Below are positions 12,068 through 54,930 of a stretch of DNA of 64,000 nucleotides, one piece after another. The notes beneath the pieces were generated by a model. That model did not search any database. It was not told the DNA's origin and saw only the letters and a program-made list of their open reading frames with translations. Source of the DNA: an uncultured Clostridia bacterium (GTDB lineage: Bacteria > Bacillota > Clostridia > TANB77 > UBA1234); assembly GCA_934169745.1 (NCBI GenBank), contig CAKPOE010000003.1, positions 16,087 to 80,086 of the forward strand, read 5' to 3'. Each line of letters opens with the position of its first letter. Position 1 is the first letter of the stretch. The position numbers and the translations under genes were made by a program.

Positions 12068-12096
12068 TTGACATTTCAGAACGGTTGTTCTATTAT
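12068..12096 (+). promoter_or_regulatory. recA sigma-A promoter (TTGACA-17-TATTAT) with Cheo/LexA box GAACggttGTTC in the spacer (12079-12090)
   Basis: Read directly: TTGACA 12068-12073; GAAC-N4-GTTC 12079-12090; TATTAT 12091-12096. Confidence 0.75.
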
Positions 12097-12135
12097 TTAC
12101 TTGTAGCAAGAAAAGATTTTTTTAGGAGGTTTTTT

Positions 12136-13194
12136 ATGAGCGATAATAGTGAAAAGAAGAAGGCTTTGGAAGTTGCCTTGAGCCAAATCGAAAAGCAATT
12201 TGGTAAAGGTTCGGTTATGAAGTTAGGAGAGAATGCACATCTTAATATAGAAGCTATTCCAACTGGTGCATTAAGTTTGGATATCGCATTAGGAATTGGC
12301 GGAGTTCCTAGAGGAAGAATTGTAGAAGTATTTGGACCAGAATCTTCTGGAAAAACAACTGTTGCGTTACATATGATTGCAGAAGCACAAAAGCAAGGCG
12401 GGGAAGCTGCTTTTATTGATGCAGAGCATGCATTGGATCCAGTATATGCTAAAAAGTTAGGTGTTGATATTGATAATCTAATTGTTTCTCAACCAGACAC
12501 AGGAGAGCAAGCATTAGAAATAGCAGAAGCTTTGATAAGAAGTGGCGCGATTGATATTTTAGTATTGGACTCAGTTGCAGCTTTGGTTCCTAAGGCTGAA
12601 ATTGATGGAGATATGGGAGACGCGCATGTAGGATTACAAGCAAGACTTATGTCTCAAGCGTTAAGAAAACTAACGGGCGTATTAAATAAGTCTAATACAG
12701 TTGCAATATTTATAAATCAGCTTCGTGAAAAAGTTGGTATTATGTTTGGAAATCCAGAAGTAACTCCGGGAGGAAGGGCTTTGAAGTTTTATGCTTCTGT
12801 AAGACTTGATGTTAGAAAAACAGAGACATTAAAAAATAATGGTGAAGTTGTTGGAAATCACGTAAAAGTTAAAGTAGTAAAGAATAAGGTTGCTCCTCCA
12901 TTTAGAGAAGCTGAATTTGATATAATGTATGGAGAAGGAATTTCAAAAGAAGGAAATATTCTTGACATAGCTGTTAATTTAGATATTGTTGAAAAAGCTG
13001 GTGCTTGGTTTAGTTATAATGGAACGAGAATAGGTCAAGGTAGAGAAAATGCAAAACAATATTTAAAAGATAATCCTGAAATTTGTGCAGAGATTGAAAA
13101 GAAAGTTAGAGATAACTATGCAACTGCATTTGATAGAAGCCTTACAGAAGAACTTGAAAAAGTTGACGATGACGATATGGAAGATGATGAATAA
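12136..13194 (+). CDS. recA: Recombinase RecA
   Basis: Start placed at MSDNSEKKK after the GGAGG RBS, not the upstream ATG at 12085. Walker [10 protein letters not shown] and the full RecA core are present. Confidence 0.95.
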
Positions 13195-25066: not shown

Positions 25067-25429
25067 GGAGTGAGTCAGATAATCGCGGATACCACAAAGG
25101 TATATGAGGAAAGTCCGGGCTCCACAGGGCAGGGTGCCAGTTAACGACTGGTGGAGGTAACTCTAAGGAAAGTGCAACAGAAATAAACCGCCACAACTTT
25201 GTTGTGAGAATGAGTTTTGTGCTCGTTCGTGTAAGGATGGAAAGGCAGGGTAAGAGCCTACCAGCAATATGGAGACATATTGGCTATGCAAACCCCACTC
25301 GGAGCAACGCTATGGGAGAAGTTTAGATGGCCCGTCATTACTTCTTAAAGAAGCGGCTTGAGATATATAGCAATATATATCCTAGATAAATGATTATCAA
25401 ATACAGAACCCGGCTTATAGATTTACTCT
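25067..25429 (+). ncRNA. rnpB: RNase P RNA (bacterial type B)
   Basis: Universal GGAAAGTCCGGGCTCC motif. ACAGAACCCGGCTTA near the 3' end. 5'/3' ends can pair as P1. About 360 nt, typical for Firmicutes. Confidence 0.85.
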
Positions 25430-25436
25430 ATATATG

Positions 25437-29125: not shown

Positions 29126-29160
29126 TGAAAGGCAGCCTTAATTGGCTGCCTTTTCTTAGT
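29126..29160. terminator. Terminator after ackA, shared with a convergent gene
   Basis: aaaggcagcc ttaatt ggctgccttt hairpin + T-run. Confidence 0.7.
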
Positions 29161-29635
29161 AGTTGCGGTATTCAATGCAACTGTAGTCTTTTGGAGGTGT
29201 CTGCTTTCGTGGTCTCTTAAAGAAGAGATATACTCTCGCAATTGTATTTGACAAGAGTAAGTCAGCAAGCAACAAAGCGGTATATACCACCCAGCGCGAA
29301 CCACCCTCACGGAGAAACATTCCCCAATAGGTAAAACGTGCACAAGTTCCGTCCCATCCACAAATCGTAAATCCACGTTCAAACTTATCGGTAATCCAAT
29401 AACCAAAAGGTAATTTGAAATCCGGATTGTTAACGATTTGCTGAGCATAGCCTTTGAAGTTATCCGAGCAGAAGGGGACAGCAAATCCCTCAAGAAAAAT
29501 CACTGCTAGTGTGAAAAAAATGAACAAACAAGCTGTGATCTTCCATTCCTTTACGCGCAATTCTTTCTGCTTTTTCTGCTTTCTTTTCCGCGACCTTCTG
29601 TGCATCTTTCGTGCCTCCTTATAAGTAGTATTCAT
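29156..29635 (-). CDS. Hypothetical membrane protein with a highly basic N-terminus; elevated GC
   Basis: 159 aa. RBS ggagg. KRKQKKQK stretch, then TM, then a Cys/Trp-rich domain (ICGWDGTCARFTYWGMF). GC about 42%. Confidence 0.45.
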   Translation of the reverse strand: MNTTYKEARKMHRRSRKRKQKKQKELRVKEWKITACLFIFFTLAVIFLEGFAVPFCSDNFKGYAQQIVNNPDFKLPFGYWITDKFERGFTICGWDGTCARFTYWGMFLREGGSRWVVYTALLLADLLLSNTIARVYLFFKRPRKQTPPKDYSCIEYRNY

Positions 29636-29724
29636 AGTACGTCTAATATATTAACATAATTTTAAGAAAATGTCAACGCGGCTTTGTATGCGAACACATT
29701 TTTGTATATTTTTTTGCAAAAGTA

Positions 29725-29753
29725 TTGACAAAGAATAAATGTTCGTATATTAT
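29725..29753 (+). promoter_or_regulatory. Promoter TTGACA-17-TATTAT with LexA/Cheo-like box GAATaaatGTTC (29733-29744) in the spacer
   Basis: Read directly. Architecture parallels the recA promoter in this window. One mismatch to GAAC-N4-GTTC. Confidence 0.5.
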
Positions 29754-29794
29754 AATTAATGTAATAAGAACAATTGTTTTGTGGAGGTATTTAT

Positions 29795-30067
29795 ATGAGA
29801 ATCAAAAATATGAAAAGATTTATTATTTCAATGACAATTATTTTAACATTTATTATTTTCTTATGTAGTGTTATAACTAATAAGGTTTTTTCACATGAGG
29901 AACCAAGCTATAAAACGATTACTGTTTCTAGTGGTGACACATTATGGGCAATTGCAAGTGAATTAGAGGGAAATATAAATGAAAACATTTATAATATAAA
30001 GAAATTAAATAATTTAGAAAAATCGAACTTATATGTTGGTCAGGAGTTATTAATTCCTATGATGTAG
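29795..30067 (+). CDS. Small TM + LysM-domain protein (YneA-like candidate SOS cell-division inhibitor)
   Basis: Start at MRIKNMKRF after the GGAGG RBS. 90 aa: N-terminal TM helix then a LysM motif (TVSSGDTLWAIASEL...YVGQELLIP). Confidence 0.65.
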   Translation: MRIKNMKRFIISMTIILTFIIFLCSVITNKVFSHEEPSYKTITVSSGDTLWAIASELEGNINENIYNIKKLNNLEKSNLYVGQELLIPMM

Positions 30068-30094: not shown

Positions 30095-31099
30095 TTAATT
30101 TTTATAATTGGCTAATGGATTATTTTCAATTGCTTGTCTTATTTGATAATTGTCTACATGCGTATATATTTCTGTTGTACCAATACTCTCGTGTCCCAAT
30201 ATTTCTTGCAAAGCTCTTACATCAACACCATTTTGATACATTAGCGTTGCAGCTGTATGACGAAGTTTATGAGTTGAATATGAACCTAATCCACATTCTT
30301 TTAAGTATCCTTTTATTATTGTTTGTACCATACGATTACTTATTCTTTTATTTCTTTCACTTAAAAACAAAGCATTTTTATCTGGTCCTGAAGATAATGT
30401 TGGTCGTACTTGCATATATTCACCAATTGCTCTTAAACAAGCTTTGTTTAAATATATCGTACGTTCTTTGTTTCCTTTTCCAATCACAGTTAGAAGACAT
30501 TCATCGAACTTGATATGATTTATATTTATGCCTACTAATTCCGATAAACGCATACCACAATTCAAGAATAGAGTTGTCATTGCATAATCTCGTGCAGCAA
30601 GGATTTGCTTTTTGTCGCTGATTTCTCCATCCTTCTTTTTATATTTATCGCCATTTTTGGTAACATCGAGTAATTTCTCACTTTCATTTAATGAAAGGTA
30701 TTTTGGCAATCGTTTTCCAATTTTTGGATTTTCAAGTTCCTTAGCCGGATCATCATCAATAATTTTTGCTTTTGAGTGTAAGTATTTAAAAAAGCCTTTT
30801 ATACTTGCTGACTTCCTTGCACGAGAAGTGGCCATATTATTACATTCATCCTTTAGAAAAGTCATATATGCATAAATATCGTTTAGCGTAATTTTATTAA
30901 GAAATTTCGCATCTATATCTTCAATTGAGTCAATATCATCAATTGTTAAGTTTTTATTTTTAAGTTTCAAAAGTTTCATATACTTTAAAAACCTAACCAA
31001 ATCATAGCGATATTCATTTATAGAATTTTTTGATTTATTCATATTTGCATTGTAGTTTAAATAATCAATCAAAACTTGTGGTAAGGCTTCATTTGTCAT
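30095..31099 (-). CDS. Tyrosine site-specific recombinase, XerC/XerD family
   Basis: 334 aa. Catalytic R..HxxR..Y context: LRHTAATLMYQNGVDVRALQEILGHESIGTTEIYTHV. Confidence 0.85.
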   Translation of the reverse strand: MTNEALPQVLIDYLNYNANMNKSKNSINEYRYDLVRFLKYMKLLKLKNKNLTIDDIDSIEDIDAKFLNKITLNDIYAYMTFLKDECNNMATSRARKSASIKGFFKYLHSKAKIIDDDPAKELENPKIGKRLPKYLSLNESEKLLDVTKNGDKYKKKDGEISDKKQILAARDYAMTTLFLNCGMRLSELVGININHIKFDECLLTVIGKGNKERTIYLNKACLRAIGEYMQVRPTLSSGPDKNALFLSERNKRISNRMVQTIIKGYLKECGLGSYSTHKLRHTAATLMYQNGVDVRALQEILGHESIGTTEIYTHVDNYQIRQAIENNPLANYKN

Positions 31100-37488: not shown

Positions 37489-38458
37489 ATGGAAACTTAC
37501 AATTTATATAAGATTGGGGGTATAATATAGCCAAACAAAGGGCGGTTCACGGCTATTGTGGGCTGCCGAACGAAAACAATGAAAAATGTCAATATTAAAT
37601 CTAAGTAGGGAATAGGGAAATAGGCTATTTTTAGAAAAGTGTAAAAACAAAATTTTAAATTATAAAATAAAAAATTCTTAAAAACAAGAAAGGAAATTTA
37701 AATATTTAAAAATTTTGTTTAGAGTTAAAATTTTACATACGAACATTTGTTAGAATGCTCAAAAATGATTTTATATTATAATTTAATAATTTTTTATAAA
37801 TACTATATAATTTTAGATTACAAATCCATAATATAATTTTATAGTTGTGACACACTAAAATCGATTTTAAGGCATTTTTATATTCAATCAAGCAAATTAT
37901 ATAACTATGATTATATATGTTAATTTATAAATCTAGTGTTTATTATATAATTTTAGCAGAAATACTGATTCTTAATCATTTACAATAAATGCTTAATAAT
38001 TGTTCAAAAAACGACGCACGAGGATGCCCTAGAATCGATTTATAGAAATTGGGTAATGAAGTTATATTGACGAAATAAAAACTAATTGTCGTGAACCGAG
38101 GATTTTTAAAGAAATGGAGAGATATTTAAATAAAACTTCTAAATATGATTAAAATTAATTAAATATTACTAAATATAATAAAATTAGTGTAAATGAATTT
38201 CTAATATAGAGAAATATTAAAATTATATGTAACGTGTGACAAAAAAATAATAACAATAATTTAAAAATTGATAAAAAAAGAAAAGAAATAGCAACACTTT
38301 AAGGTCAATAATGCAAAATCTTGCAAATGTACCATTTTACGCGTTTTATTGCATACATTATTGTACAAAACTATTATTTTGTGCAATAAATATTTGCCTA
38401 ATATTTTGAAAAATGTTACGTTATTTATAATATTCTCCTCTATAATGATATATAAAAA

Positions 38459-38496
38459 AATCTATTGTATATTTATTTTTTACAATAGATTTTCTA
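38459..38496 (-). terminator. Terminator for the minus-strand gene 38505-38876
   Basis: aaatctattgta...tacaatagattt is a 12-bp perfect stem. On the minus strand it is followed by tttttttat. Confidence 0.65.
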
Positions 38497-38504
38497 TAGA
38501 ATCT

Positions 38505-50199: not shown

Positions 50200-53100
50200 T
50201 TACATAATATTTGGCATTAAATAATCAATTATTTTGTCATCCATATCTTTTAATATTACTCCATCAGAAATATACTCTCCTTCACTTGTTACAATTGCTT
50301 CATACTCTACATATTGATTTGTAGTTCCTGAGGTATATACATAAAAGTACAATTTCTGTCCATCCTTTCTATATGGAGTTTTTACGACATTTTCATCATA
50401 CGCATATTTATCTCCTTCAGTAAGTTTCATAGAGTTTGGCAATACATCTTCAATAACATAAGCCACATCATCAGTCGATAGTTTACTATAGTCTATATTT
50501 ATTTTTACTGTTACTATATCACCAATATTAGCAGTACTAATATCTTTTCCATTGATTGTATAAGTTTTTCTTAATATTCCTTTTGAATTTTTTTCGTCCG
50601 GTTTAATTATTTCTGTTCTTCTATACTTAGTACCAATATTGTCAGTTGCTGATTTCACGTAAACCTCGTCTTTGTACGTTACACTATAAGGAATAACTTC
50701 AATACCATTTACGCTTATTTCTTTTTCTTCGCCATTTACATTCAAAATCACTTTTCCATTCTCAACAGAATTTTGTATCTCGTTTTGAATTCTAAATAGT
50801 TTTACAAAATTAGAATATTCCGTCCCTCTATTAAGAGATTTGTATTTTTCATATATACTCGTTCTATTTGTGTTATTAAGCTTAAAGCTTAGCATTGATG
50901 TGTATTCAATCATTTCACTTGTGTAACTCAATGATGTTGTATCATACATGTCACAAATTCTAGTTGCGCTTTCATACTCTCCTATATCAGCATAAGAAAG
51001 AGCAAGTATTAAGAATTCATACTTATCCTCTTCAAATTTAAGATTTTTTTCTATTTCTCTTAAATCCTTTAATACCGGTTCTTTAAGTGCTGCTAATCCC
51101 CAATATGCATATAACTTCTCTCTCATATCTAAATTTTCATTTGATATAACATCTTCAAAATATTTTGCTAAATTTGCGTCTCCTTTAAAATATCCTGTTG
51201 AAGCAAGTTTTGCAGATAATAGTACATCTGAACTTGAAACGCCCAACAACGATAGTCCATGAATTGTATCAAACTCTTCACTTTTAGCAGTAGTTTTTTC
51301 ATTAGACAATTTTCTTAATATATTATCTGCCAAATAAGAAATAACCTTTTGGTCGTTTCTCACTTTTGGCATATATGTTAAATAAAACAAATCATCTAAT
51401 ATGTTGCTAATATCTTTATTTGAAAAATACAATGTTGCAACACCTTTATCAACACTTATTTTTTCGTTTGCTTTCAATTCAAAATTAGTTGATATAACCG
51501 CTTCTTGAAAAGTATCAACAACTTGAATGTTCTTCTTTATTGCATCAGTTCTTCCATTACTTTCTGCTTTTATAACTATTTCATACGTTCCACTATTTAA
51601 TTTTCCTAATGATACGTTAGCATATTTTCCAACATTAGATTCTACATTTAATACATTTTTTTGTCCGTTAGGAGATGTTATCTCTATTGTATACTTGATC
51701 TCATCATTTACTTTTGTTGCATTACCGTTACATCTAATATTTATTGATGGCGTTTCTCCTGTTAGATATTTGTCATTTGAAATAGCTGTTACAAAGAATG
51801 GCAAAGTTACTTTTAAATCTTTATCTAATTGCACTGCTTTATAATCCTTTATAGTAGCTTGTGCACTGACGTTCCAAGTTGTAACATTGTCAGGTAGTTT
51901 TAATTCTATTTCTGCTTCTCCATTATCATTTGTATATACAGTTTCGAAGAAAGCAGTAGTAGCAAATTTTGAACGGATTTCGCCATCTCCTCCTCCGCCA
52001 CCACCAGCGAACGTTTCAGCAATTACTGTGTGCGTTAGATTTTTTATATTGTCGTTAAAGTAATAACTATTGTAAAGAGCATTTAATATGTTTGTATCAT
52101 TTGCATTGGCTGCCAAATATTCTTTATTTACAGCGCTTAAGTTCACAACTGCTTTTATTGGTTTGCCATCACTCTTTGTAGTTACTTTTATTTTTATTAT
52201 ATCCCCCGGCTTATATTCTGCTTTATCAAATTTTATATCAACATCCATTTTTAATTCTTCTTTAGAAAGAGAATATTCATTTTCAAAAGAATAATAATAG
52301 TCTCCGATTTCTCTTATTGCAACTCCGTCAAACACATATCCTTTTATAACAAGATTTGCTCCATATTTCTTGTCGAACCTCAATCTATAATTAGTATCTT
52401 TTGTTGTAATAACATCTATACCATTTGATGATTTCACTAAATATAGAATATATGGTGTACCAGTTAGTTCACCATTAATTTTTTGAAGTTCCAATGTAAT
52501 GTCATCATTTACTTTATACTTGTCTCTAAATGTATAATCATTATCATTAATAATATAATTTCCCATAAATACTTCTGATGTGCTCTTCGCTTCTTCATCC
52601 AAGTAAGCACCATACGAGTATTGCATACTTATAAATTTGTTGTCTTTTTCAGAACTCATGAATGCTCTATATTCCAAATATCCCTCAGAGTTATCCTTGT
52701 ATGGACTTATGTATGCACACATAGCTTTTCCGTTTGTCGTTGTATATTCAATTTTATCATTTCCATCAAAAACACGGTTTACTTTATAATTATATTTCGT
52801 TGTTTTTGTATTCTCATCATAATAAGAAGAAACAACTTCTTTTTCATATTTATATTTTTCTATTTCTATATAACCGCTTCTATTGGTTGGTACTCCTTGC
52901 TTTACATCATTCATATCAGAAAAGTCATAAAGGAACGTGTCTATATCAAATAGTACAGTGTTATCTTGTTTGCTATATTTATACACAACATTAAAACTTT
53001 CTTCATTAGGATAAACCGTGAAATACTTTATAATACTGTCTTGATCTTCTATTCCTTTAGCCTTTATTGCAATTTGCCCATAGAATGGTCTGTTATATGG

Positions 53101-54930
53101 ATGTAAATAATTTGTATTAATCTCAAATGTACACTTGCCATTCTCATCAAGTGTTATATTTCTCTCAACATTTTCATTATTTAGTATGTAAACAAATTTA
53201 GTACTTGTTAAAGGGCTTCCATCAAACAGTTTTGCTGTGACGGTACAAGTTATATTTTCGCTACTCTTCACCGATGTCTTATCCAACTCTACATTTACAT
53301 CATATGAATTCGTATCATAATCTTTTATTTCAAAAGAATCTCTAGCCTGACATTTTCCATTTACATACACGCATACATCATAATAGCCACTAGTATAATT
53401 TTCTACATTAAATGTAGTTTCAAAAGTTTTAAATTCATCTAAAGAAACATTTTTTTCTTCAATCACCGTATCAGACCATAAAGGTGTTACTTTTAATATT
53501 ACTTCTTTAAATTCTCTTCCTTTTCTGTCTTTTACAAATCCCCACAAGTGAATTTCTTCATCTGGTTTAAATGTCTTTCTATCTAATCTTGTATAAACAT
53601 TTATATACTCATCCGTATTTGATTTATTATCTTCGTTATGTATAACACTATATAACGTTTCTCTACCGTCTATATAAATCTCTTCTGTCAAATATCGGGT
53701 AGACTTTATATCTATATCATTTATATACAAATACCCTTCAGCATTTGTAACACCAACTTCTTTTCCATCGATTTTAATTTTAGCATTTCCTAGTGGCGCG
53801 CTATTTGCTAAGTCATTGACCCATACTAGCAAATCATTATCCACATACTCGGTTAATGCTGTGATGTTATTTATTTGAAGCGGTATATAATATTCAGTGC
53901 CATTTATTCTTACTACCAGCATATAATAACCAAGAGCTAATTTTGTTTTTATTGGTAATATGTAATTCCAAGATGAATCTATAATTTCTTCTTTAGATAT
54001 AGTTTCTTCAGAAATCTTTGCTAGTGATGTTAAATCTACTTTTTTCAAGATAGACTTATTTCCAAATTCCTTCTTTGCTTTTAAATCTTCTAAGAATTGT
54101 TTGCCACTTTCGTATTGATAAATTGACACATTATACTTATCAACTTCATTTGTATATAGTTTCAAATATATAGGCTTATTTTCAGAATACCCATATTCTG
54201 TATCAACAAAGTCAATATATTCATTTTTTTCTATATCGTCAGCAGAAACGTACGTTCTCAAAGCGTATTCTTTCTCAGATAATTTCTCTGTATTTTCTTT
54301 GTTTCCAAATCCAGCCCTAATATTTACAACATATGTTGTTGCATATTCTAGCCCATCATTGGGAGTAAATCTTATTTTTCTATTATCATATTCAAATTTT
54401 CCTTCAACTTTAGGTGTAATTTCAAAATAGTTTTCTATATCATCATTAGGCGTATAAGTAAATTGAATTTCTATAACTGTATGTGGAGAAACGTAGTTGG
54501 TGTTCATTTCATTTTTTTCGGCTGGATAAAAGTTTGAAACATCAAATACTTTCTGTGTTTGGAAAGACCATTTATATGGTGCCTTATCTGTTTTGTATTC
54601 AATATTATAAATTGTATTAGGTGCCAATTCTTCTTTTAGTGTTAAAGTATAATAATTATTTCTCACTTCTTTAATTTCATATTCTACACTGGGAGTTATA
54701 GAAAACGATGTCTCAACAAGTTCTTTACTTGTACTTTCGTTTGCTTCTAAATTAAATGATGTGTTAAGTGCAACCAAGTCGTTTTTCTCATTGGAAGCGG
54801 TAACTTTAAATTCCGGGTAATTCATCACTTTTTTAACATCGCCTTGATCATCTCGTATATTCATAGATATTACGAAAAATGATATAACAGCAATGATAAA
54901 AATGCTAATAATAAGTACTTTTTTGTTCAT
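50200..54930 (-). CDS. Giant N-terminally membrane-anchored alpha-2-macroglobulin-family protein (MG-domain array; no CxEQ thioester seen)
   Basis: 1576 aa. RSKFATTAFFETVYTNDNGEAEIELKLPDNVTTWNV matches the A2M RxxFxETxxW...PDxxTTW signature. Long array of beta-sandwich-like repeats and a C-terminal helical TED-like region. Confidence 0.6.
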   Translation of the reverse strand: MNKKVLIISIFIIAVISFFVISMNIRDDQGDVKKVMNYPEFKVTASNEKNDLVALNTSFNLEANESTSKELVETSFSITPSVEYEIKEVRNNYYTLTLKEELAPNTIYNIEYKTDKAPYKWSFQTQKVFDVSNFYPAEKNEMNTNYVSPHTVIEIQFTYTPNDDIENYFEITPKVEGKFEYDNRKIRFTPNDGLEYATTYVVNIRAGFGNKENTEKLSEKEYALRTYVSADDIEKNEYIDFVDTEYGYSENKPIYLKLYTNEVDKYNVSIYQYESGKQFLEDLKAKKEFGNKSILKKVDLTSLAKISEETISKEEIIDSSWNYILPIKTKLALGYYMLVVRINGTEYYIPLQINNITALTEYVDNDLLVWVNDLANSAPLGNAKIKIDGKEVGVTNAEGYLYINDIDIKSTRYLTEEIYIDGRETLYSVIHNEDNKSNTDEYINVYTRLDRKTFKPDEEIHLWGFVKDRKGREFKEVILKVTPLWSDTVIEEKNVSLDEFKTFETTFNVENYTSGYYDVCVYVNGKCQARDSFEIKDYDTNSYDVNVELDKTSVKSSENITCTVTAKLFDGSPLTSTKFVYILNNENVERNITLDENGKCTFEINTNYLHPYNRPFYGQIAIKAKGIEDQDSIIKYFTVYPNEESFNVVYKYSKQDNTVLFDIDTFLYDFSDMNDVKQGVPTNRSGYIEIEKYKYEKEVVSSYYDENTKTTKYNYKVNRVFDGNDKIEYTTTNGKAMCAYISPYKDNSEGYLEYRAFMSSEKDNKFISMQYSYGAYLDEEAKSTSEVFMGNYIINDNDYTFRDKYKVNDDITLELQKINGELTGTPYILYLVKSSNGIDVITTKDTNYRLRFDKKYGANLVIKGYVFDGVAIREIGDYYYSFENEYSLSKEELKMDVDIKFDKAEYKPGDIIKIKVTTKSDGKPIKAVVNLSAVNKEYLAANANDTNILNALYNSYYFNDNIKNLTHTVIAETFAGGGGGGDGEIRSKFATTAFFETVYTNDNGEAEIELKLPDNVTTWNVSAQATIKDYKAVQLDKDLKVTLPFFVTAISNDKYLTGETPSINIRCNGNATKVNDEIKYTIEITSPNGQKNVLNVESNVGKYANVSLGKLNSGTYEIVIKAESNGRTDAIKKNIQVVDTFQEAVISTNFELKANEKISVDKGVATLYFSNKDISNILDDLFYLTYMPKVRNDQKVISYLADNILRKLSNEKTTAKSEEFDTIHGLSLLGVSSSDVLLSAKLASTGYFKGDANLAKYFEDVISNENLDMREKLYAYWGLAALKEPVLKDLREIEKNLKFEEDKYEFLILALSYADIGEYESATRICDMYDTTSLSYTSEMIEYTSMLSFKLNNTNRTSIYEKYKSLNRGTEYSNFVKLFRIQNEIQNSVENGKVILNVNGEEKEISVNGIEVIPYSVTYKDEVYVKSATDNIGTKYRRTEIIKPDEKNSKGILRKTYTINGKDISTANIGDIVTVKINIDYSKLSTDDVAYVIEDVLPNSMKLTEGDKYAYDENVVKTPYRKDGQKLYFYVYTSGTTNQYVEYEAIVTSEGEYISDGVILKDMDDKIIDYLMPNIM

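Follow-up and report, generated by a model that had tools for sequence, protein, structure and literature searches.

The gene at positions 29795-30067 (+) of the window, that is, of the whole 64,000-nucleotide stretch of DNA analyzed here, is probably an SOS checkpoint gene of the YneA family, from an uncultured Clostridia bacterium of the human gut with low GC content, and its product appears to be a LexA-repressed division inhibitor. By analogy, we infer damage induction, LexA binding and division arrest for this gene. An earlier note on this DNA had proposed an SOS-controlled YneA-like inhibitor unlinked to lexA, and every part of that proposal which can be tested in silico turned out favorably. 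The elements of the promoter and of the gene are the following.

29692-29703 (+), distal LexA (Cheo-type) box GAACACATTTTT, 21 nt upstream of the -35 hexamer; the 16-mer GCGAACACATTTTTGT at 29690-29705 scores 12.2 bits, rank 4
29725-29730 (+), -35 hexamer TTGACA, invariant in 9/9 orthologous promoters
29733-29744 (+), middle LexA box GAATAAATGTTC, in the promoter spacer; 11.5 bits, rank 6
29748-29753 (+), -10 hexamer TATTAT; the orthologs keep TATAnTAT
29768-29779 (+), proximal LexA box GAACAATTGTTT; 14.2 bits, rank 2 in the window
29784-29788 (+), ribosome-binding site GGAGG, 6 nt before the ATG
29795-30067 (+), yneA-family gene; ATG at 29795, stop at 30067, 90 aa
30074-30095 (no strand assigned), GC-rich hairpin AGGGGACGCCAAAGCACCCCCT, between the convergent yneA-like and recombinase genes

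The two hexamers are separated by a spacer of 17 nt, aagaataaatgttcgta, and match the consensus at 11 of 12 positions, as in a near-consensus promoter of the sigma-A type. The earlier note had described this promoter as TTGACA-17-TATTAT with a one-mismatch box in the spacer, and both coordinates and letters check out. A GGAGG-type purine-rich site is found in the aligned orthologs at a distance from the ATG similar to that in the window gene, and MRIK is the N-terminus of all orthologs. An alternative start at TTG 29774, which would give a protein of 97 aa, was ruled out, since the ribosome-binding site precedes ATG 29795 and the orthologs begin at the same four residues. The hairpin behind the gene was called on the minus strand by the terminator scan, and on the plus strand its stem is followed by TTAATTTTTATAA. 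It is likely a two-way terminator, in which case the yneA-like gene would be monocistronic.

The product is predicted to be a bitopic membrane protein of 90 amino acid residues with an extracellular LysM domain. It begins with the basic sequence MRIKNMKR, in which residues 1-8 include four Lys or Arg and no Asp or Glu. Residues 9-27 are hydrophobic (mean Kyte-Doolittle value 2.79) and form the single predicted transmembrane helix; together with the basic, acid-free N-terminus this points to an N-in/C-out topology. The LysM domain was found at residues 42-88 (Pfam, E 1.5e-11). The description in the earlier note, a product of about 90 aa with one TM helix and a LysM domain, agrees with the length, the Pfam match and the hydrophobic segment given here. 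The AlphaFold2 model, calculated with 25 homologs (mean pLDDT 79), consists of a helix at residues 6-32 followed by the beta-alpha-alpha-beta fold of LysM domains. The chain ends at the LysM domain, with no C-terminal tail, and a catalytic domain is absent according to Pfam and NCBIfam.

The LysM motif of the protein is G47-D48-T49-L50-W51, in which Gly, Thr, Leu and Trp are invariant among the homologs, while position 48 is occupied by Asp or Glu. The Gly-Asp-Thr part of this motif (G47-D48-T49), with its invariant Gly and Thr, is a feature shared with YneA of B. subtilis. In that protein, the residues of the TM helix which dock on TM7 of FtsW are K5, E6, F10, V11 and F14, and the residues which bind peptidoglycan are D46, T47 and I81 (PMC13396833). 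The peptidoglycan-binding residues of the LysM domain were matched to the B. subtilis numbering by way of the LysM motif rather than by direct alignment.

A linker, KVFSHEE (residues 30-36, DNA approximately 29882-29902), lies between the TM helix and the LysM domain. It is nearly invariant in the clade of the window gene and is missing in the lexA-linked homologs. The residues VFS followed by His fit a signal-peptidase-like -3/-1 pattern; cleavage at this position, if it takes place, might release the LysM domain or inactivate the protein.

The top hit of the protein is the NCBIfam equivalog NF010723, 'cell division suppressor protein YneA', with 64.3 bits against a cutoff of 60, which is a narrow margin. 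The match covers residues 11-89 of the window protein and positions 4-86 of the 87 in the profile. The next LysM family in NCBIfam reaches 29 bits, and the YneA model leads the other LysM families by more than 35 bits. The same model is the best match of all 20 members of the clade, for which it is the most widely matched family, and of all 18 lexA-linked homologs. Listeria monocytogenes YneA (P0043, named as such by NCBI) was aligned by BLASTP over window residues 8-89, including the TM helix, with 29% identity and an E-value of 6e-12. In hhalign comparisons, the profile of the clade matched Listeria YneA at 96.9%, and it matched the profile of the lexA-linked homologs at 99.9% (E 2e-31) over residues 2-90. 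In addition, a juxtamembrane motif of the type (I/L)KNxKRF is common to the window protein and the lexA-linked clostridial homologs.

The score above the NF010723 cutoff and the full-length alignment with Listeria YneA show that the likeness to YneA is one of homology and not of design alone. The earlier note had spoken of the same design as YneA, a statement which these comparisons support and carry further. The search gave 41 homologs; those close to the window protein all have about 90 residues. An identical protein is present on human-gut metagenome contigs, one of which is a Hadza contig of 147 kb. The one NCBI-named relative found (P0033) is listed merely as 'LysM peptidoglycan-binding domain-containing protein'.

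The control of the gene by LexA was assessed with a position weight matrix (PWM) for a 16-mer, built from 62 boxes taken solely from the lexA-yneA intergenic regions of 19 other Bacillota; the scan covered the 64 kb of the window. The best site in the window is located in the promoter of recA, which serves as a comparison within the same DNA.

12069-12074 and 12092-12097 (+), recA promoter, TTGACA and TATTAT with a 17-nt spacer
12079-12090 (+), perfect LexA box GAACGGTTGTTC of recA, in the promoter spacer; 16.2 bits, best in the window
12136-13194 (+), recA (Pfam RecA, 1.4e-145); recX is next downstream

According to the earlier note, the promoter of the yneA-like gene has exactly the architecture of the recA promoter. 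The hexamers and the 17-nt spacing are the same, but the box is offset: its distance to the -10 hexamer is 3 nt greater in the yneA-like promoter than in the recA promoter. The perfect box in a recA promoter of the same design suggests that a LexA regulon is active in this organism.

The ranking of the PWM sites is as follows: the recA promoter with 16.2 bits, the proximal box with 14.2, a site at 54244 with 12.5, the distal box with 12.2, a site at 37739 with 12.2 and the middle box with 11.5. Thus, three of the six best sites of the window fall inside 92 nt. The earlier note had proposed a PWM check of its box, and when run on the 64-kb window this check places three of the six best sites in this promoter, with recA at the top. 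The distal and proximal boxes are absent from the earlier note. The distal box, with two mismatches, has an intact left half-site, CGAAC, and a degenerate right half. The proximal box is located between the -10 hexamer and the ribosome-binding site, which places it at about +8 to +19 relative to the inferred start of transcription. The middle box GAATAAATGTTC has one mismatch to GAAC-N4-GTTC; it is the weakest of the three and reaches the 10th percentile of the sites used for training. None of the three boxes is perfect, and all belong to the lower quartile of the training sites (23rd, 13th and 10th percentile). Boxes of 16-21 bits were found in the lexA-linked loci L095 and L096, and boxes of about 17 bits in L010 and L011.

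It is important to compare these numbers with what is expected by chance. Sequences of the form GAAC-N4-GTTC with at most one mismatch occur 17 times in the window against 15.4 expected, which is the chance level. The case for the boxes therefore rests on their clustering and conservation. Among 2000 first-order Markov versions of the window, three such PWM hits within 100 nt were found in none (0/2000) and two hits in nine (9/2000). The three-box cluster is far beyond chance. A PWM background rate over the retrieved loci was set aside, because these loci are enriched in true LexA sites. The box on which the earlier note relied is present and conserved, but taken alone it stands at chance level and, at 11.5 bits, is the weakest of the three.

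The conservation of the boxes, which is the stronger evidence, was followed by phylogenetic footprinting in nine aligned orthologous promoters, whose genes code for proteins 59-72% identical to that of the window. The half-sites AAGAA and GTTCG of the middle box are invariant in 9/9 orthologs, as are AAGAAC and GTT of the proximal box, and in both boxes the N4 varies. The distal sequence GCGAACA..TTTTTG is kept in 6/9 promoters at -101 to -108, including some that do not have the divergent tm149 gene described below. The positions of the boxes in the orthologs are steady, at about -103, -62 and -27 from the ATG, while the DNA further upstream of the boxes is unalignable among the nine promoters. 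The middle box is a perfect GAAC-N4-GTTC in L010 and L011, and the proximal box is perfect in L007-L011. In lexA-linked loci, the lexA-yneA intergenic regions likewise have three boxes as a rule, and the layout there is the same as in the window promoter. The invariance of the half-sites, while the N4 and the flanks diverge, is indicative of purifying selection and not of decay.

The position of lexA is a difference from the typical yneA locus. A tblastn search of the 64-kb window with a LexA query found no lexA at E<=1e-5, as the earlier note had said, while the same query was positive in 42 other loci at E<1e-50. The loci of homologs were collected by a scan of one genome per species, which gave 80 related loci. 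In 42 of the 80, lexA is close to the homolog, mostly divergent and a few hundred bases upstream. For L095 and L096 the linkage to lexA was verified with Pfam, and the homolog there is 44% identical to the window protein. The divergent lexA arrangement, which is typical for yneA without being a trait of the protein family, is not found at the window locus but occurs in more distant homologs. The context common to the window clade consists of pta-ackA, the yneA-like gene and a convergent Xer-like recombinase gene, with no lexA nearby. The two genes that flank the yneA-like gene in the window are listed here.

29156-29605 (-), orphan membrane-protein gene (tm149), 149 aa, divergent from the yneA-like gene
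30095-31099 (-), Xer-like tyrosine recombinase, 334 aa (Pfam Phage_integrase, 7.7e-43), convergent with the yneA-like gene

The recombinase scores 219 and 216 bits with the NCBIfam XerC and XerD equivalogs, below their cutoffs of 335 and 330. A convergent recombinase is also present in the lexA-linked loci L025 (50% identity), L027 (44%) and L096. It lies beside yneA-like genes throughout Clostridia, lexA-adjacent or not, and further examples are L007-L015 and L087-L094. Since the recombinase is common to linked and unlinked loci, the two sets of genes are tied by synteny in addition to sequence. No LexA site was found by the PWM upstream of the Xer-like recombinase, where the best score is 2.2 bits. 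The adjacent gene of the integrase family raised the question of an origin from a mobile element or prophage; this was ruled out, as the recombinase and the pta-ackA context are clade-wide.

The N-terminus of the protein coded by tm149 is very basic, and the protein includes a TM helix; neither Pfam nor NCBIfam gave a match. The gene has its own promoter, TTGACA-17-TAATAT, at 29676-29648. It is found only in the window and its closest relatives, inserted where ackA otherwise abuts. This is also the place which lexA occupies in other Clostridia.

The best reading of these arrangements is that the window clade lost the linkage to lexA and kept the operators and the convergent recombinase. Being separated from lexA, the yneA-like gene must be regulated in trans. 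In B. subtilis, yneA forms an operon with yneB and ynzC, and the resolvase-like yneB is co-transcribed with yneA. A speculative extension, to which we give little weight, is that the yneA-like gene and the Xer-like recombinase constitute a module coupling division arrest to chromosome-dimer or site-specific recombination, and that the imperfect set of three operators might give a different (higher or graded) damage threshold compared with a lexA-linked yneA. The CodV/XerD COG was flagged as SOS-associated in a study of the gut SOS meta-regulon (PMC3998124).

Three other explanations of the gene have to be weighed. The protein could be a LexA-regulated relative of YneA with another role in the envelope, such as wall remodelling, protection or control of autolysins. 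The support for the window protein as a division inhibitor consists of architecture and family match only; the C-terminal tail of Listeria YneA is missing from it, the clade-specific linker KVFSHEE is present, and ChiZ, a LysM-bearing relative, was reported to hydrolyze the cell wall (PMC6851548). However, the homology to YneA is full-length and includes the TM and juxtamembrane segments, the characterized members (from B. subtilis, B. megaterium and L. monocytogenes) are all division inhibitors, and the window protein has no catalytic domain. Another envelope role is therefore rather unlikely. It is still less probable that the boxes are decaying relics of a lexA-yneA intergenic region and that the gene is expressed constitutively or in response to another signal. 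Such an origin would be in keeping with the separation from lexA, with the strength of the boxes, which is below that of L095 and L096 (16-21 bits) and of L010 and L011 (about 17 bits), and with their low percentiles among the training sites (10th to 23rd). However, the imperfect boxes are kept in position, with invariant half-sites, in orthologs which are 59-72% identical, and a constitutive division inhibitor behind a near-consensus promoter would harm the cell.

The third explanation is that the gene codes for an unrelated TM-plus-LysM protein, either SpoIIIM-like or a generic wall anchor, and that the boxes arose by chance in AT-rich DNA. The LysM domain is ubiquitous, SpoIIIM has the same topology, and a single one-mismatch box is at chance level (17 against 15.4). 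Nevertheless, the cluster of three sites did not occur in any of the 2000 simulations and the positions of the boxes are conserved; moreover, the YneA model stands more than 35 bits above other LysM families and the distant homologs adjoin lexA. The sigma-A-like promoter with LexA boxes also speaks against a SpoIIIM-like family. This last explanation can hardly be maintained. The reading as a LexA-repressed YneA-type division inhibitor is therefore preferred.

The mechanism that may be proposed for this inhibitor is modeled on the B. subtilis system. As long as the DNA is undamaged, LexA from a gene elsewhere in the genome would sit on the three boxes and block the binding and escape of RNA polymerase. 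The -35/-10 region would be covered by it, as would the early transcribed region. As each box is of modest strength, the occupancy by LexA is probably cooperative. On DNA damage, filaments of RecA on single-stranded DNA would bring about self-cleavage of LexA, and a monocistronic mRNA of the yneA-like gene would be produced. The protein would then enter the membrane, where FtsW, the septal peptidoglycan synthase, may serve as the docking site of its TM and juxtamembrane segments. The LysM domain would bind peptidoglycan, and septal wall synthesis would stop. Filamentation of the cells would last until the damage has been repaired and LexA is back. In the case of B. subtilis YneA, the docking site of the TM helix is TM7 of FtsW, and for a block of septal synthesis the LysM domain has to bind peptidoglycan (PMC13396833). 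A lexA mutant of C. difficile is filamentous (PMC4689574). In Gram-positive bacteria, small membrane inhibitors beside lexA are the rule (PMC6851548).

A comparison with known systems shows both likenesses and differences. Like YneA of B. subtilis, the window protein is small and bitopic, with an N-terminal TM helix and a LysM domain placed outside the cell, and its promoter has several LexA operators. Unlike B. subtilis yneA, the window gene is not divergent from lexA, appears monocistronic, and codes for 90 aa with no tail. YneA of Listeria has 109 aa, of which about 17 residues lie beyond the LysM domain, whereas the window protein is without such a tail. The Listeria gene adjoins lexA (PMC6851548). 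In C. (Acetivibrio) thermocellum, Clo1313_1450 is a LysM gene of the YneA type; it is divergent from lexA, its LexA sites are conserved, and the same is found in relatives (PMC8457756). The clostridial lexA-linked homologs (L016-L027, L096) can be aligned with the window clade over the full length and have the convergent recombinase in common with it. However, genes of the Clo1313_1450 type share the intergenic region with lexA, while in the window clade the gene is located downstream of pta-ackA instead.

Small damage-induced membrane proteins that block late division are also known as ChiZ in M. tuberculosis, SosA in S. aureus, DivS in C. glutamicum, and SidA and DidA in Caulobacter. SosA, DivS, SidA and DidA have no LysM domain and are not homologous, while ChiZ has a LysM domain and is larger; ChiZ and SosA were set apart by description. 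SpoIIIM (YqfZ) of B. subtilis, also compared by description, has the TM-plus-LysM topology of the window protein. It is a sporulation protein, and YneA accepts neither the TM helix nor the LysM domain of SpoIIIM in place of its own (PMC13396833). SOS induction is not part of the description of SpoIIIM; the window gene, by contrast, has three LexA boxes in its promoter.

Much of this is known already: the NCBI models would name the protein YneA, and LexA-controlled YneA-like genes have been described in Clostridia. The one modest twist is that the gene is stably separated from lexA and yet retains the operator triad and the recombinase neighbor. The analysis gives a functional call for a small gene, according to which the YneA checkpoint would reach uncultured gut Clostridia. 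It also suggests that a division inhibitor can stay under the control of LexA in trans, away from lexA. Since the yneA-like gene is unlinked and nevertheless has LexA boxes, adjacency to lexA is not a necessary criterion in studies of SOS regulons. The conserved three-operator promoter could act as a damage reporter in such organisms. No accepted views are overturned.

Some further features of the window may be added. The LexA-like site AGAAACGTACGTTCTC at 54244-54259 (12.5 bits) is located inside an ORF at 50200-54930 (-), a gene for an alpha-2-macroglobulin-like protein of 1576 aa, and is probably a chance intragenic match. The region 37490-38500 is a very AT-rich stretch of about 1 kb with no ORF of at least 60 aa and no Rfam match. 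The LexA-like site ACGAACATTTGTTAGA at 37739 (12.2 bits, rank 5) is found in this stretch, with no obvious gene behind it. Two adjacent ORFs, at 42774-45128 (-) with 784 aa and at 45170-47101 (-) with 643 aa, have no Pfam match at E<=1e-5. The only Rfam family in the window is the class A RNase P RNA, located at 25067-25433 (+) with a score of 276.9 bits.
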